Positions 3,319 through 10,598 of a DNA stretch of 27,135 nucleotides are shown piece after piece (the first letter of the stretch is position 1; each line of letters starts with the position of its first letter). The translations under genes and the position numbers were made by a program. The notes under the pieces are model-generated. The model had not been told where the DNA came from, searched no databases, and worked only from the letters and a program-made list of their open reading frames with translations. Source of the stretch: a virus (taxonomy: Duplodnaviria; Heunggongvirae; Uroviricota; Caudoviricetes); IMG/VR virus record IMGVR_UViG_2529292920_000017; one strand, written 5' to 3'.

Positions 3319-3411
3319 CGATACAAATAAAACATCAAATTAAATAAGAAAACGTGAAAACCATCCGTATTAACGGAGGTATTCGCACACGCAAATAACG
3401 GAGATACAAAA

Positions 3412-3822
3412 ATGCACGCAAAAGAAGAAGGTATCATCAGAGCACTGAAAGAAATTTCAAAGATGGAAAGCGAAGTAGCGAAAAAAGCCGTGGCCAATGC
3501 TCACATGGACGTCGCAACCCACACAATGATAGTCGCAAAAGTCACGGCAGAAGCTGCCAAAATCATCGAAGAACAGGGTGTGGAACTTGCGCTTCTCAAA
3601 ACTAAACCAGTCACCGGACTGGATTTATCTGACACCGGACGCCTTATTTACACTATTGGCTCGGAGCCACAGCGATACACCATTATCGCCGGATTACAGA
3701 ACAAATACCTGATCACTCCTCACCCCATAAGGGAATCAGCGCTTCTGACAAATCTCCGCCTGATAGAGCGCTCTCAAGTTGCATTCATTGATGACGCCCG
3801 ACACACCGTATTTAACGCATAG
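3412..3822 (+). CDS. hypothetical early protein
   Basis: ATG at 3412 with AACGGAG upstream; 136 aa. Preceded by an AT-rich intergenic region (3319-3411). Confidence 0.6.
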   Translation: MHAKEEGIIRALKEISKMESEVAKKAVANAHMDVATHTMIVAKVTAEAAKIIEEQGVELALLKTKPVTGLDLSDTGRLIYTIGSEPQRYTIIAGLQNKYLITPHPIRESALLTNLRLIERSQVAFIDDARHTVFNA

Positions 3823-5232: not shown

Positions 5233-5622
5233 ATGATTGACGCTCATGACTTCACAAGATGGGTGCGCACACAGGACACCCGTCTGGCTCCCGTTCTTCA
5301 GGGATTATTTGATCTCTACATCCGTGGTCGTGACAACAGAGCACGCACCACAAAACCGGAAAATGCAGACACCCTTTATTTCACAGTAGACGACTGCTAC
5401 CGCGTGGACTTCACACCACACGGGCTGGCGTTGCATTGCCTGATACCACACGGAGAATCACTGCTGGCGTATTACGACTCCCCGGCCTCCGTATTTGCGG
5501 CAATGCTGGCGCATCGCACTGCTGGCGGGTGTGCCTCGCTGAGTGAATACACCGCTGAATTTAACCGCCTTTCTGCCCTCTTCTCGCAGGAGTGGCAGCG
5601 CGTGACGGGATACCAGCCATGA
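5233..5622 (+). CDS. hypothetical protein immediately upstream of the replication initiator (P2 gene B position)
   Basis: ATG at 5233; 129 aa; stop overlaps the gene A start (ATGA at 5619-5622). Positional analogy to P2 B only; no motif recognised. Confidence 0.5.
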   Translation: MIDAHDFTRWVRTQDTRLAPVLQGLFDLYIRGRDNRARTTKPENADTLYFTVDDCYRVDFTPHGLALHCLIPHGESLLAYYDSPASVFAAMLAHRTAGGCASLSEYTAEFNRLSALFSQEWQRVTGYQP

Positions 5623-8447
5623 GTGAGTTTGCATGGAGCTGGAATGAACCACGACCAGCCATTGATCCGGCCAGATTTACGGAGCACAGGCAGGAAACTG
5701 AAACCGACCTACAACGCGCCATCCGTTACTACCTTGAGGCAGACAAAAAGGCTCTGGAAGAACAGGAAGCGAAGGAGGAAGCCTTTTTCGCACAATCCAC
5801 CGTGGGTAAAAAACTCATGGCATCCCTTGAGGAAGCCGGACAGCGTGAAAAGCTGGCACAAAGCATCATCAGCAAGCGTCAGGCAACAGAACAAGACCCG
5901 GTGGCCCGTGCTTTTGCCACACTGAAGGTGCTTCCCGTTTATCTGCGTGAACCTCTGAGCCGCCACCTCTCTTTCCTGCGCAAAAAACAGGAAGCCGATC
6001 GCCAGAAAGGCAAAAAGAGCTGGCAGGCTGAACGCTACGCGCGCGGAACCCTGCGCAAAATATTCGAACGCCTGGACCGCACCGATCACCGCTGGCTGAC
6101 ACCGGGTTATCGCTCCCTTGCCGGACGCGAACGCCTGGACGATTTGCTTTACCTGCCGCAGCTCAACAAACACCAGATACAGACGCTGGCCACCATGACG
6201 GCGGCGATGTTCAGCAGCACCTTCGAAAAACTCTGCGATGGCTTTGGTGCGACTGATGGCGAACTGACCATGGATGTAACGCTGAAGGCGTATCAGATGC
6301 TGGCCCGCATGGCGTTACACCTGCACGCCATGCCTCCACATTATGACGCACTGACAACAGACAAAGACCGGAGGAACGAACCGGACACGGAGCTGCTGCC
6401 GGGCGCAATCCTTCGCCTGACCTGTGCGGAATGGTGGAAACGCAAACTGTGGCTGTTACGTTGCGAGTGGAGAGAAGAACAACTCCGCGCCGCCTGTCTG
6501 GTTTCCAGAAAAACATCACCCTATCTGAGCCAGGACGCGTTAAGCGAGTTTCGCGCACAGCGCGAGAAAACACGCGATTTCCTGAAAAGTTTCATGCTGG
6601 AAAACGAAGACGGGTTCACGATTGATCTCGAGACAGTGTATTACGCGGGAGTAAGTAACCCGGTTCACCGTAAGGCAGAAATGATGGCCACCATGAAGGG
6701 GCTGGAACTTCTGGCCGAAGCCCGTGGCGACAAAGCGGTGTTTCTGACTGTCACCTGCCCGTCAAAATACCACGCCACAACAGAGAACGGTCATCCGAAT
6801 CCCAAATGGAACGGGGCCACCATGCGCGACTCCAGCGATTACCTGGTTAACACGTTTTTTGCGGCGGTCCGCAAGAAACTGAACCGCGACGGCCTGCGCT
6901 GGTATGGCATCCGCACGGTGGAGCCTCACCATGACGGCACCGTGCACTGGCATATGATGGTCTTTGCTCATCCGGAAGAAATCGACACCATTGTGTCCCA
7001 CACCCGCGATATTGCCATTCAGGAAGACCGCCACGAGCTGGGCAATGATATTACTCCGCGCTTTAAGGTGGAGTATGTCGACGGCTCAAAAGGCACGCCA
7101 ACCAGCTACATCGCCACCTACATCGGAAAGAACCTGGACAGCCGCGCCGTGGATGGCATCGACCCGAAAACGGGCAAGCCACGCGTTGACCACGAAACCG
7201 GAAAATCAATGGCCGAGAGCGTGGAACGCGCCATCGGCTGGGCACGCCTTCACCGGGTCCGCCAGTTCCAGTTCTTTGGCATCCCCTCCCGTCAGGTATG
7301 GCGTGAACTCCGCCGCCTTGCCAGCCAGATGGCACGCAACCCGGAAGGCCCGCAACGGCTGAAGGATGATGCAATGGATGCGGTACTCGCTGCCGCTGAT
7401 GCCGGGTGTTTTGCCACCTACATTGAGAAACAGGGCGGCGTACTTGTTCCACGCAAAGACTACCTGATTCGCACCGCCTACGACCTCGCAGATGAGCTGA
7501 ACGATTACGGCGAACAGAGCGTACAGATTTACGGGATTTGGTCACCACTCATCGGGGAATCCTCCCGTGTGTGCACGCACCCGGATAACTGGAAGCTGGT
7601 AAGACGTAAACCGGAAGCGGAAGACAGCACCCGCGAAAATGGTTTTGACCTTCAGGGCGGCCCTGCCGCCCCTTGGACTCGTGGCAATAACTGTCCCCGT
7701 GTACAGGAAACGGACAACAACGGGACAGAACAGCCAGCACCGTGGTCGCAGCTCCCTGACGGCGTTGAAGTGAACGAATGGATGCGCTCACTGAAACGGC
7801 ACGAACGCCGGGCGCTGATGCGTTCGCTTCGTGACAAACAGGCAAAAAACAGCCGTGATGAAATGCAGAGCTGGACACAGAGCCGCAAACAGCAGCGGCC
7901 TTTGCCTGATAACCACGAACTACTCGCTAAAGAATGGCGGGAGTCTGCTGAATCTCTCGGCCTGCATATCGGTGAACAGCAGATGCAGCATCTGTTACGG
8001 GGCGGCAGTCTGTACGTTGACGGCAGCATCATTGCACCGCAGGGATTTGAAATTGTACGCAAACCGGATACCCGACCGGACAGCCGGATCACGCAGCTCT
8101 GGCAGCGCCTGAGCCGTAACCACGGCGTAAGCAGTACGGAGATCCGCCATAACCCGGTCGCCAGCTATCTGGAACAGCTGGGGACATCAGACCCCGAAGC
8201 CGCCGCACGCCTGGCATCCACACTTCAGCAAGACCAGAACACCATGAAAACACCCGTTACCGTGCTTTCTGACATGCTGCGCGCCATCCGCGACGCAGAG
8301 CACGCACAGAGAATCAGTGAAACCACTGAACGCGCCCGCCGCAAAGCAGACCTGCTGCGGGGTGGCCTGACCAGTGGAAACAAAAAACAGACAGAAACGG
8401 GATTCACAAATCCCGTAAATGAGCAAAAAACGCGCCGCGATATATGA
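5619..8447 (+). CDS. A: replication initiation protein, rolling-circle HUH endonuclease (P2 gene A family)
   Basis: ORF track 5592..8447 (GTG); start placed at ATG 5619 (MSEFAWSWNEP...). Contains HUH-type motif VHWHMMVF (around 6945-6968) and paired active-site tyrosines YIATYIGK (around 7105-7128), as in P2 A/phiX174 A-type initiators. About 942 aa, with a long low-complexity R/Q/E-rich C-terminal region. Confidence 0.85.
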   Translation: MSEFAWSWNEPRPAIDPARFTEHRQETETDLQRAIRYYLEADKKALEEQEAKEEAFFAQSTVGKKLMASLEEAGQREKLAQSIISKRQATEQDPVARAFATLKVLPVYLREPLSRHLSFLRKKQEADRQKGKKSWQAERYARGTLRKIFERLDRTDHRWLTPGYRSLAGRERLDDLLYLPQLNKHQIQTLATMTAAMFSSTFEKLCDGFGATDGELTMDVTLKAYQMLARMALHLHAMPPHYDALTTDKDRRNEPDTELLPGAILRLTCAEWWKRKLWLLRCEWREEQLRAACLVSRKTSPYLSQDALSEFRAQREKTRDFLKSFMLENEDGFTIDLETVYYAGVSNPVHRKAEMMATMKGLELLAEARGDKAVFLTVTCPSKYHATTENGHPNPKWNGATMRDSSDYLVNTFFAAVRKKLNRDGLRWYGIRTVEPHHDGTVHWHMMVFAHPEEIDTIVSHTRDIAIQEDRHELGNDITPRFKVEYVDGSKGTPTSYIATYIGKNLDSRAVDGIDPKTGKPRVDHETGKSMAESVERAIGWARLHRVRQFQFFGIPSRQVWRELRRLASQMARNPEGPQRLKDDAMDAVLAAADAGCFATYIEKQGGVLVPRKDYLIRTAYDLADELNDYGEQSVQIYGIWSPLIGESSRVCTHPDNWKLVRRKPEAEDSTRENGFDLQGGPAAPWTRGNNCPRVQETDNNGTEQPAPWSQLPDGVEVNEWMRSLKRHERRALMRSLRDKQAKNSRDEMQSWTQSRKQQRPLPDNHELLAKEWRESAESLGLHIGEQQMQHLLRGGSLYVDGSIIAPQGFEIVRKPDTRPDSRITQLWQRLSRNHGVSSTEIRHNPVASYLEQLGTSDPEAAARLASTLQQDQNTMKTPVTVLSDMLRAIRDAEHAQRISETTERARRKADLLRGGLTSGNKKQTETGFTNPVNEQKTRRDI

Positions 8448-8497
8448 AGCGCGCATAAAACAGGCAAAAACGGGATTTCAGAATCCCGTAAACGATT
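8385..8497. promoter_or_regulatory. parC-like centromere/operator candidate upstream of parM
   Basis: Two perfect 8-bp inverted repeats with 4-nt spacers: ACGGGATTcacaAATCCCGT at 8397-8416 and ACGGGATTtcagAATCCCGT at 8470-8489, each embedded in a longer direct repeat (AAACAGRCARAAACGGGATT...AATCCCGTAAA). Centres are about 73 bp apart. The first copy lies inside the 3' end of gene A, the second just upstream of the parM RBS. Confidence 0.5.
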
Positions 8498-8523
8498 AAT
8501 TAATCAACATAAGGAAAAGCGAC

Positions 8524-9483
8524 ATGAAAATTTGTATCGATGACGGCTCCACCAACATCAAGCTGGCATGGACTGAGAACGGCGAACGCCGCAACGCCAT
8601 CAGCCCGAACAGCTTCAAGTCGGAATGGTCTGCGCCGTTCGGTGGCACGCAGCCCGCGAACTACATGCTTGATGGCGTGCGCTATGGTTTTGATCCGGTC
8701 AGCGATCGCTTTGTCCAGACGACCGACACGCAATACCAGTACAGCGATGTGAATGTCATTGCCATTCATCACGCGCTGGTCAAATCAGGCATCACACCAC
8801 AGGAGGTGGATGTGGTTGTCACCCTGCCACTGAGCGAATATTTCGACACAAACGCACAGCCGGACATGGCCAACATCAACCGCAAAAAAGCAAACGTCAT
8901 GCGCCCGGTGGCGTACCAGAACGGAAAAGCATTCACTATCCGTAACGTACGGGTTATGCCTGAATCCATTCCGGCTGGTTTTAAAGCACTGGCTGACATG
9001 AGTCCGTTTGAATCCCTGCTGATTGTGGATTTAGGCGGAACCACGCTGGATGTGGCAAAGGTTCAGGGACAACTGGCAGGTATCAGCCAGGTGTTTTGCG
9101 ATCCACACGTAGGCGTTTCCCTGATGGCCGATGCCGTACTGTCGGTGATGGCCACTAACGGTATGCGTACCAGTCACCACATCGCCAATACCATTATCGA
9201 ACATCGCCATGATGAAGCCTGGCTGCGCCAGCACATCCACAATGACGCGCATTACGCCAGCCTGATGGCGGTTATTCGTGAAAAGGAAGAAACACTGAAA
9301 CAACGCGTGATCCGCGCGCTGGCGGGTTTTTCGGGTTACGGGCGGGTGATGGTTGTCGGTGGCGGGGCGGAGATTGTGGCACCCGCTATCCGCGAAGCCT
9401 GCGGAGTTAATGCGACTTTCATCGCGGACGGGGTGCCACAGTTTGCTCTGGTTAATGGGCTGTACGCAATGGACAAGGAGTAA
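8524..9483 (+). CDS. parM: actin-like segregation ATPase ParM/StbA
   Basis: ATG at 8524 with AAGGAAAAG upstream; 319 aa. N-terminus MKICIDDGSTNIKLAW and internal LLIVDLGGTTLDVA are the actin-fold phosphate-1 and phosphate-2 motifs. From memory the protein aligns along its length with plasmid R1 ParM (MLVFIDDGSTNIKLQW..., ...VMPESIPAG..., ...GGGAE...). Confidence 0.85.
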   Translation: MKICIDDGSTNIKLAWTENGERRNAISPNSFKSEWSAPFGGTQPANYMLDGVRYGFDPVSDRFVQTTDTQYQYSDVNVIAIHHALVKSGITPQEVDVVVTLPLSEYFDTNAQPDMANINRKKANVMRPVAYQNGKAFTIRNVRVMPESIPAGFKALADMSPFESLLIVDLGGTTLDVAKVQGQLAGISQVFCDPHVGVSLMADAVLSVMATNGMRTSHHIANTIIEHRHDEAWLRQHIHNDAHYASLMAVIREKEETLKQRVIRALAGFSGYGRVMVVGGGAEIVAPAIREACGVNATFIADGVPQFALVNGLYAMDKE

Positions 9484-9487
9484 ACCA

Positions 9488-9799
9488 ATGACGACACCAA
9501 CCAGACGAATAAGTTTCTATCTGAAGCCCGCCGCCGTCAAGAACGAAGGCGAAGCATGCGCCTGGCTGGACAGCCTTACACCAGAAGCCCGCAAAAGCGG
9601 CCAACGTGTGGCTTTTCTGGCCGGGCTGGCACTTCTGAAAATGAATCCGGCAGAGGCTTACCGACTGGCTGCATGGGCTGATGATGAAGCGTTATCAGTG
9701 ACACAAACCAGGACAGAACGCCCCGCATCACAGCCAGTATCAACCGCACAGATAACCAGTCAGATGGCCGGAAATATCCGGGCGTTATTTCCCGAATAA
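9488..9799 (+). CDS. parR: ParR-like centromere-binding protein (ribbon-helix-helix)
   Basis: ORF track 9353..9799; start placed at ATG 9488, 5 nt after the parM stop. 103 aa. RRISFYLKP, LDSLTPEARKSGQRVAFLAGLALL and the C-terminal NIRALFPE parallel R1 ParR (RRTIAFKLNP, LDSIPQGERSRLNRAALTAGLALY, NILRSLFPKE) as recalled from memory. Confidence 0.7.
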   Translation: MTTPTRRISFYLKPAAVKNEGEACAWLDSLTPEARKSGQRVAFLAGLALLKMNPAEAYRLAAWADDEALSVTQTRTERPASQPVSTAQITSQMAGNIRALFPE

Positions 9800-9862
9800 T
9801 ACAACATCAGGGCGCATCCGCCCTGATGACTTTAATCCGGGAACACAAACAAAGGGGACACA

Positions 9863-10234
9863 ATGCAACACATTGACAGAGAAAAAGCGCAGCGACTGAT
9901 TGAGCGGATGGAAGCGCTGGCGAAAGAAGAAAATGTCAACATCCAAAAAATAGCTGAATGTGGCCAGATAGTTCTTCGTCGTGAAAAAGACCTCAAACAA
10001 CTGATGTCTGGCGAAACCAGCAAAACATGGACTTCAGGCGAGAAGACGGTTTATTGCAGTTTCTGCAATAAATCCCAGTACGAAGTCACAAAGGTGATTG
10101 CCGGACCGTCTGTTTACATCTGCAATGAATGCGTGGATTTGTGCAATGAAATTATCAGGAAAGAAGTGACAGACAAAAAGGAAAAAACGCATGAACAGAA
10201 AACAGAAACAAGAGTTGAAATACTTCTTACGTAA
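9863..10234 (+). CDS. stand-alone ClpX-type C4 zinc-finger protein
   Basis: ATG at 9863 with AAAGGGGA upstream; 123 aa. C-terminal [38 protein letters not shown] is near-identical in pattern to the ClpX N-terminal zinc-binding domain ([38 protein letters not shown], from memory). There is no AAA+ module. N-terminal 60 aa is a charged, probably helical region. AT-rich gene. Confidence 0.75.
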
Positions 10235-10598
10235 AGAAATTGCCAGGCTTGAAGATGCAGAGTCACAATCATCAGAAATTCCGTTCGGAATGGATATCAA
10301 CGACGCCCGTATGCTTCAGGCATACCGTATAGCTCAGGCTGCACTACAGACAAAACCGTTAAATAACATACATGAAAAGTATGATTATTTTACGGATACC
10401 GCTTGCTTGCTGACATCAGAAGAACAAAAGATAGCCCAACTTTTAGGCGACGCATGGAACCTGTATTTAACATTGCCAGTTGAGCATCCAATGGGTAGAG
10501 ATGAATTTTGCCGGGCAATTCATCATTGCCAAAATATGGTGTTGGCACGCCCGGCCATCAGGGCGTTGGCCAGGAAGGGGCAAGGCTATAAAAGATAA
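10191..10598 (+). CDS. hypothetical protein (135 aa), overlaps the zinc-finger gene by 44 nt in another frame
   Basis: ATG at 10191 with AAAGGA about 9 nt upstream; AT-rich. The last gene before a terminator hairpin. No motif recognised. Confidence 0.5.

Follow-up and report, generated by a model that had tools for sequence, protein, structure and literature searches.

We analyzed a 27,135-bp stretch of viral DNA (IMG/VR record IMGVR_UViG_2529292920_000017), referred to over its whole length as the window, and in particular a pair of palindromes at the junction between its replication gene A and a gene for an actin-like partition protein, ParM. The 27-kb window is an E. coli prophage of the P2 type that resembles phage P88 and belongs to the genus Xuanwuvirus of the Peduoviridae. 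Positions 5500-10300 are 97% identical to phages PhiR44_2, P88, Chuche, and phiSM. The genes are found in the order integrase, C/Cox switch, early genes, gene A, parM, a parR-like gene, and an open reading frame (ORF) with a ClpX-type zinc finger, followed by the portal and terminase genes on the opposite strand. The features at the junction are the following.

5619-8447, plus strand: gene A, a P2-type replication endonuclease with a Phage_GPA domain (ORF listing, domain match)
8381-8422, plus strand: repeat unit 1, made of an A/C-rich 16-nt flank, dyad 1, and AAATGA (repeat comparison)
8397-8416, no strand: dyad site 1, ACGGGATT-caca-AATCCCGT, in full ACGGGATTcacaAATCCCGT (direct reading)
8454-8495, plus strand: repeat unit 2, made of an A/C-rich flank, dyad 2, and AAACGA (repeat comparison)
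8470-8489, no strand: dyad site 2, ACGGGATT-tcag-AATCCCGT, in full ACGGGATTtcagAATCCCGT (direct reading)
8524-9483, plus strand: parM, an actin-like partition ATPase of 319 amino acids (Pfam, PDB, comparison with R1 ParM)
9488-9799, plus strand: parR-like gene for an adaptor of 103 amino acids (PF10784 match, pB171 ParR profile match)

Two dyads and a ParMR pair

The original prediction described paired palindromes of the form ACGGGATT-N4-AATCCCGT, about 73 bp apart, each within a longer direct repeat and the upstream one inside the end of gene A, and all of these elements were confirmed. The dyads start 73 bp apart, which leaves 53 bp between the two 20-bp units, and the core of dyad 2 ends 36 nt upstream of the parM ATG. 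The direct repeats that contain them are 42 nt long and 81% identical. Since the gene A stop codon (TGA) occupies 8445-8447, 29 nt 3' of site 1, this site lies inside the last codons of the gene, where it is read as ACG GGA TTC ACA AAT CCC GT., 10-16 codons ahead of the stop. At the other end of gene A, the mechanical ORF start is a GTG at 5592, and the ATG at 5619 shares bases with the stop of the preceding ORF.

With three mismatches allowed, ACGGGATT-N4-AATCCCGT matched only these two sites in the 27,135 bp, where 0.10 matches were expected and none of 100 shuffled sequences gave two or more. Likewise, the 12-base core GGGATT-N4-AATCCC is present only at these two places in the complete genome of phage PhiR44_2 (35,994 bp). 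The palindrome pair is real and non-random. No other family of direct, inverted, or tandem repeats was found between 8300 and 11100, and a search for additional degenerate half-sites or hidden iterons around the operon returned nothing above chance.

The two genes downstream of the dyads encode the proteins expected of a type II partition system, that is, an actin-like ParM and a small ribbon-helix-helix (RHH) ParR encoded directly 3' of parM. ParM matched the StbA_N domain (E 7e-82) and the ParM C-terminal domain (E 1e-68) of Pfam as well as PDB entry 1mwk (E 1.6e-92), and it is 47% identical to R1 ParM over 318 amino acids. The parR start lies 4 nt past the parM stop codon. Its product matched PF10784 ('Plasmid_stab_B', ParR/StbB; E 1.6e-24) and is 33% identical to R1 ParR over its N-terminal 61 residues (BLASTP E 1e-8), the R1 query being 100% identical to plasmid records. 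The profile of the family also matches the RHH ParR of pB171 (PDB 2JD3, E 2.2e-7). The N-terminal RHH domain carries the strand TRRISFYLKP, and the C-terminal tail, NIRALFPE, is kept in all phage ParR variants, even at ~52% overall identity. This tail (N-I-x-x-L-F-P) aligns with the C-termini of the IncL/M and IncFII ParRs (KNVQHLFPDD) and of R1 ParR (KNAMKLIN), the last of which is the ParM-binding peptide (PMC5016525). The phage thus carries a complete ParM and ParR pair, and a cis site is expected immediately 5' of parM. Present there are the two 42-nt units, each with its 20-bp dyad. No tandem array of at least four direct iterons, as in R1 or pSK41, was found at this position, the four half-sites being arranged as two inverted pairs. 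This makes the site a variant architecture and not a classical parC.

A separate observation concerns parR itself. DNA similarity to the window ends at ~9542 (parR codon ~18) in phages 705R2 and 569R5 and in many genomes, and past this point their ParR is only ~52% identical, with the N-terminal strand and the C-terminal NI..LFPE kept. This has the look of a recombination breakpoint or of a diversifying middle region of ParR.

Conservation of the dyads with parMR

A total of 209 related loci were gathered, of which the 65 unique sequences that had not been selected via the motif were analyzed. The ParR-based scan of genome and viral contigs yielded close relatives only, and the distant ones came via ParM homologs. 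Two contigs with more divergent ParRs (P0031 and P0028) begin inside parM and hence fall outside the upstream comparison. Among the 65 sequences, the core arms (6 bp) had a nucleotide diversity of 0.03-0.05, compared with 0.12-0.25 for the spacers (4 nt) and 0.12-0.15 for the outer 2 nt; the values for gene A and parM were 0.065 and 0.022, respectively. GGGA and TCCC were invariant, and close relatives have the unit GGGAYT-N4-AATCCC in common. With regard to whether the palindromes are conserved in related elements, the GGG/CCC core and the spacing were indeed kept (73 bp in 113 of 119 unique sequences), but the perfect 8+8 symmetry was not, as it was present in fewer than half of the 65 sequences (26 for site 1, 32 for site 2).

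These data bear on two ways in which the repeats could have arisen or acted. The 42-nt units, given their identity as direct repeats, could be the functionless remnant of a local duplication, and conservation among close relatives says little here because most of them are more than 95% identical overall. However, the core arms vary less than the spacers and outer bases of the same 20 bp, the 73-bp spacing is kept nearly throughout the unique sequences, and GGG/CCC with a spacing of 72-73 bp survives where ParM is only 62-63% identical and the surroundings have diverged. It is thus very hard to regard the units as a mere remnant.

Alternatively, the palindromes could act in the plus-strand mRNA, as stem-loops at the gene A-parM junction that serve the processing, stability, or translational control of the early transcript. 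Each site does fold as an 8-bp hairpin (-10.7 kcal/mol, z about -4) with conserved arms and variable loops, and the region is probably transcribed through, no plus-strand terminator having been detected between gene A and parM. This did not seem to be the explanation, as the pair count over the 65 sequences revealed no compensatory change in either palindrome and covariation equaled that of the shuffled control. Indeed, T8403C, which was found in 18 of the 65 sequences, breaks one pair by creating a C.A mismatch. There was no match in Rfam, distant relatives lose the self-complementarity but keep GGG-N10-CCC, and the identical stems of the two hairpins suggest sequence-specific recognition. 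We therefore give a role in the mRNA only a slim chance. That the arms are kept without compensatory changes points to selection on a sequence with dyad symmetry, not on a hairpin.

Another inverted repeat, the GC-rich CGCGC..GCGCG at 8431-8435/8449-8453, lies midway between the dyads and spans the gene A stop. It showed an apparent compensatory change in phage 520873, but the double change was found in only 2 of 119 unique sequences, the pairing was mostly broken or one-sided, and the repeat is not conserved in distant relatives. It was dropped as a structural element.

The distant set consisted of P2-like prophages with gene A, parM, and parR that were reached from ParM homologs of 54-63% identity. 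In Hafnia lineage 2 (Hafnia-2), the two sites read GGGATTGAGGAAACCC and GGGTTCATTAAATCCC at a spacing of 73 bp. In Plesiomonas they read GGGACAACAAAAACCC and GGGACAACACTAACCC at a spacing of 72 bp, and the first of these is again part of the final gene A codons. The sites stop 39-43 nt short of parM in both lineages. An alignment of four lineages left as invariant columns GGGA..A.CCC twice, ATTAAT, and the start codon. Judged from this alignment, the general unit is GGG-N10-CCC, present twice at a spacing of 72-73 bp, with 36-43 nt between the end of the second copy and parM. Only the clade formed by E. coli and Hafnia lineage 1 (Hafnia-1) has the palindromic ATT/AAT inner part.

The distant relatives also bear on transcription termination, as does a second structure downstream of the operon.

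9805-9828, no strand: GC-rich 10-bp hairpin just 3' of parR (-18.4 and -19.5 kcal/mol)

This hairpin is likely the end of the parMR transcription unit and is also terminator-like on the minus strand. The two palindromes score as terminator-like on the minus strand as well, where site 2 reads ACGGGATTCTGAAATCCCGT followed by TTTTTGCC and site 1 is followed by TTCTGTCTGTTTTTTG; they fold at -10.2 kcal/mol, and the plus-strand A-run 5' of each is conserved. They could thus be intrinsic terminators that stop antisense transcripts from entering gene A and its internal origin. However, the hairpin and T-run occur together on the minus strand only, no minus-strand promoter was detected downstream in parMR (the best match was 8/12, at 9763), and the far stronger hairpin at 9805-9828 already blocks leftward transcription. 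Two terminators would not need identical stems, common variants break pairs without compensation, and the pairing is lost in relatives: the inner parts of the Plesiomonas and Hafnia-2 sites lack any self-complementarity (GGGACAACAAAAACCC) and give no stable hairpin, with GGG/CCC and the spacing kept. A terminator function is accordingly highly improbable.

The position of site 1 inside gene A raised the question of which gene the sites belong to. Compared with the Hafnia relative, identity was 51-61% over the last 600 nt of gene A and 73-93% from ~8380 through parM and parR, and the jump at ~8380 coincides with the left edge of repeat unit 1. Segments of the repeat units were 75-100% identical, versus 68% at third codon positions of parM; segment 8457-8469 was 100% identical in the Hafnia and Salmonella relatives, and the inter-unit segment 8431-8456 was the least conserved. 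The gene A stop varies in position, being inside the site 1 spacer in Hafnia (GGATTCATGAATCC) and 3 nt past site 1 in locus L222. In Hafnia-2, the dyad sites lie inside an unrelated 167-amino-acid ORF, and the gene A tail harbors many non-synonymous polymorphisms. In these comparisons, conservation of the sites goes with parMR and not with gene A. Their overlap with gene A looks incidental, the ORF having run into the upstream region of the cassette, which makes functional coupling unlikely. The coupling between replication-gene transcription and partition control that had been proposed from this overlap thus found no support.

A related possibility is that another protein uses the sites, either in replication (as an accessory of a P2-type origin or through a cis-acting A protein) or as a phage or host regulator, and that ParR is not involved. 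Site 1 is within gene A, as is the P2 origin, and the C-terminal 200 amino acids of gene A are found only in phages that carry parMR. However, the P2 nick site (29892) aligns to ~7664-7695, about 730 bp upstream of the palindromes, and we thus rejected the palindromes as the P2-type origin. The conserved block begins at ~8380 and extends into parMR, not into gene A, and in the Hafnia-2 and Enterobacter relatives other ORFs separate the sites or parMR from gene A. The Ogr/delta late-promoter dyad, TGT-N12-ACA, was also considered and rejected, as none was found near parM. In addition, the motif follows the strand type of ParR, as described below. A ParR-independent role is unlikely, if less so than an RNA element, a terminator, or a duplication remnant.

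Two observations concern gene A in its own right. Its C-terminal 200 amino acids (7845-8444) are absent from P2 A and have no Pfam domain; in tblastn they matched only 14 phage records, all with parMR. The homolog of the P2 ori nick sequence at 7664-7695, inside gene A, reads ..CCTTGGACTCGTGGCAATAACTGT.., versus ..CCTCGGAGTCCTGTCAATAACTGT.. in P2; at this position, identity to the Hafnia relative reaches a local peak of 87%.

A candidate ParR-binding centromere

The repeats differ between lineages in step with the N-terminal strand of ParR. In four lineages, a ParR strand TRR[IV]SFYL is paired with GGG-N10-CCC present twice. P2-like prophages of Serratia and Enterobacter encode a ParR with NRKISFYLKP and lack GGG-N10-CCC; instead, they harbor a 19-20-nt inverted repeat with ATTTTTCT[AG]T (…GAAATAGAAAAAT / ATTTTTCTATTTC…, 28 nt between the arms), located 5' of parM as follows.

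3382-3447 of the Serratia locus L227: inverted repeat of the NRK lineage
2883-2950 of the Enterobacter locus L228: inverted repeat of the NRK lineage

The motif of this repeat, TTTTTCTAT, is the direct iteron of plasmids of the IncFII and IncL/M groups, in which ParR has the strand NRKCSFYIYP. In R1, the ParR strand RRTIAFKL is paired with CCC-containing iterons. Such co-variation is not a statistical proof, but it would be expected if ParR reads the repeats.

Taken together, the presence of the ParM and ParR genes, the lack of other repeats, the linkage to parMR, the core and spacing kept in distant relatives, and the co-variation support the original proposal that the palindromes are the ParR-bound centromere/operator. 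The two dyads are, with good support from these comparisons, the best and only candidate cis site for the ParR-like protein, and they probably represent the ParR-binding centromere/operator (parC-type) of a type II ParMR module of the prophage.

The geometry of the site was also examined. The spacing of 73 bp corresponds to seven helical turns, so that both dyads lie on the same face of the DNA. Within the window, 10.5-bp A-tract phasing is at its highest in the 126-bp dyad region (first of 2701 segments scanned; 0 of 2000 shuffles), a signal that is also found in R1 parC and in the Hafnia-1 and Serratia loci. The second-strongest phasing in the sequence lies at ~2100-2270, near the start of the rightward early genes and the C/Cox switch, and probably marks bent regulatory DNA. 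As a further observation, the direct iteron blocks of two plasmid relatives are 73 bp (L218, 1076-1178) and 72 bp (L229, 2856-2962) apart, which is the spacing of the phage dyads. This common spacing may reflect a conserved segrosome geometry or be a coincidence.

Transcription of parMR involves two further short elements.

8495-8500, plus strand: ATTAAT, a candidate weak -10 element without A at position 2 (invariant in four diverged lineages)
8512-8516, plus strand: AGGAA, the parM ribosome-binding site (direct reading; kept in relatives)

The dyads had been thought to flank the parM promoter. This was not supported, as the inter-dyad segment is poorly conserved and offers at best 7/12 matches to the sigma-70 consensus, and the one invariant element that resembles a promoter, ATTAAT, lies 3' of site 2. 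The best lenient match, TTCAGA(8477)-16-ATTAAT(8499), scored 8/12 and overlaps site 2. If ATTAAT at 8495-8500 were the -10 element, the core of dyad 2 would be placed at -35. A strict promoter scan found none between 8000 and 10000, which is uninformative since it also missed the known R1 par promoter. Because there is no plus-strand terminator between gene A and parM, read-through is possible, and parMR may be transcribed by read-through of the early operon, from a weak promoter of its own beneath dyad 2, or by both routes. The dyad site probably doubles as an operator, a role that is conjectural as no convincing sigma-70 promoter is associated with it.

Several points weigh against the assignment as a centromere/operator. 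The site has only four half-sites, compared with 10 iterons in R1 or 4 x 20 bp in pSK41, and no convincing sigma-70 promoter was found at the sites. The co-variation is drawn from few lineages and depends on which repeats we took to be the sites. A-tract phasing is absent in Hafnia-2 and Plesiomonas; the phasing is therefore taken as clade-specific, and DNA curvature is no general requirement. Of the 1456 places at which the element was found, 1454 are chromosomal, so that a classical plasmid-partition role is not obvious. Finally, the AlphaFold2 model of the ParR monomer was of low confidence (pLDDT 53); it was not used and adds nothing.

If the dyads are a centromere, the mechanism could be as follows. 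At each GGG/CCC half-site, the N-terminal beta-ribbon of a ParR dimer (TRRISFYLKP) would enter the major groove, and each 20-bp dyad would thus hold a dimer-of-dimers. With both dyads on the same face and, in this clade, phased A-tracts between them, four ParR dimers could form a compact looped or wrapped complex. The ParR tails (NIRALFPE) would then capture the ends of ParM filaments, which would push circular phage genomes apart after excision or infection. Because dyad 2 is 7 nt 5' of the invariant ATTAAT, with 36 nt separating it from the parM ATG, bound ParR would probably also limit parMR expression; it could do so by occluding a promoter or by standing in the way of transcription that reads through from gene A. 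The sites, their uniqueness and pattern of conservation, their linkage to parMR, the families of ParM and ParR, and the co-variation with the ParR strand come directly from the sequences, whereas ParR binding, its stoichiometry, the looping, the autoregulation, and the biological role are points that we infer.

Two GGG-N10-CCC dyads placed seven turns apart depart from the iteron arrays of classical parC, and the difference in form from R1 parC that had been pointed out at the outset was borne out. Like the dyads, parC is found directly 5' of parM in both R1 and pSK41, and for partition proteins of the RHH type, direct and inverted repeats are equivalent binding sites (PMC5016525). R1 parC resembles the phage site in lying immediately 5' of parM-parR and in having two blocks, phased A-tracts, and CCC in its repeats. 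However, it consists of 10 direct, C/A-rich 11-bp iterons (2 x 5) that flank a clear promoter (PMC5016525), whereas the phage has four inverted half-sites with no sequence similarity to these iterons and no clear promoter between the dyads. In pSK41, parC is a tandem of four 20-bp repeats, and a ParR dimer-of-dimers binds to each of them; as in the phage, the unit is 20 bp, made of two ~10-bp halves, and read by an RHH ParR (PMC5016525). The pSK41 repeats are contiguous and direct, whereas the phage units are palindromic and 53 bp apart, and the pSK41 proteins are presumably only distantly related.

The nearest plasmid ParMs, with 52-53% identity, are those of IncL/M (L218), IncFII (L217), and Pantoea (L229) plasmids. 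Their ParRs share with that of the phage the C-terminal N-[VA]-x-x-L-F-P tail. Their parC sites are two blocks, each of several T-rich direct 10-11-bp iterons (GTATTTTTCT, TTTCTCT), with a strong promoter between them. Their ParR strand is of the NRK/RRK type, as opposed to TRR in the phage, and the iterons show no similarity to the phage dyads.

On integrating elements, the closest functional analogs are srpMRC of SXT/R391 and AlpAC/alpS of the Corynebacterium prophage CGP3. The former is a type II-like module on a normally integrated element and acts on the excised circle; srpC has only four repeats, direct and inverted, 5' of the ParM-like gene, and SrpR binds both orientations of these 13-bp repeats (PMC4489591). 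It differs in that SrpR has no recognizable ParR domain, the repeats are 13 bp long, and the module is under SetCD control (PMC4489591). It is presumably not homologous to the phage module in sequence. AlpAC likewise combines an actin-like protein with a DNA-binding adaptor whose sites are 5' of the operon; its expression comes on early in induction, and efficient replication and positioning of the phage DNA depend on it (PMC4446434). The differences are that alpS contains 24 short TTAAnnG repeats, that the actin-like protein and adaptor belong to other families, and that the host is Gram-positive (PMC4446434).

Distribution and biological significance

The parMR module (8340-9800) was found in 1308 of 5426 complete E. 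coli genomes, at 1454 chromosomal places and 2 plasmid places. One plasmid record, NZ_CP148288.1 (34,461 bp, circular), corresponds to the entire phage including the integrase; it could stem from an excised or carrier form, or from induced phage DNA that was assembled. O157:H7 genomes carry the module (82% of the query, ~97.5% identity). Sp13, a P2-like remnant in O157 Sakai, excises, circularizes, and amplifies after mitomycin C (PMC2669165). Outside E. coli, the contig L008 (NZ_JBQPOM010000071.1, labeled Vagococcus sp., a Gram-positive genus) encodes a ParR that is 93% identical to that of the E. coli prophage studied here. This is probably a contaminated or mislabeled assembly.

In previous work on P2-like phages, the ParMR cassette is mentioned only under the name of a 'putative plasmid partitioning system', which roughly one in four of the P2-like phages of E. 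coli carry (PMC9122126), and we found no description of its cis site in the searchable literature. The 123-amino-acid ORF directly after parR (9863-10234) falls in the gpA-gpQ hotspot of P2-like phages (PMC9122126). It contains little beyond a ClpX-type C4 zinc finger (PF06689, E 9e-18) and could encode a ClpX-adaptor mimic or decoy.

We tentatively propose, as a possibility that is still rather doubtful, that the minimal two-dyad centromere and ParMR form a viral genome-positioning device. The virus in question would be a P2-like myovirus that is normally integrated and is found in roughly one in four E. coli genomes. If so, ParR bound at the two GGG-N10-CCC units would couple circular phage genomes to ParM filaments after excision or infection. 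Replicating circles would be dispersed or positioned as by AlpAC in CGP3, or a transient plasmid-like carrier state would be supported, and the same complex would throttle read-through from gene A into parMR. In this view, phage lineages of both the TRR and the NRK type would have turned the iteron arrays of plasmids into a few inverted sites. The candidate site is compact, with four half-sites in 93 bp (GGG-N10-CCC twice, 72-73 bp apart), which makes the system experimentally tractable. The questions raised are whether ParR binds there, whether two dyads can nucleate a complex that captures ParM, and what purpose an actin-like segregation system serves in an integrating phage. More broadly, the correspondence between the ParR beta-strand (TRR, NRK, or RRT) and the repeat motif has the appearance of a small recognition code for this RHH family.

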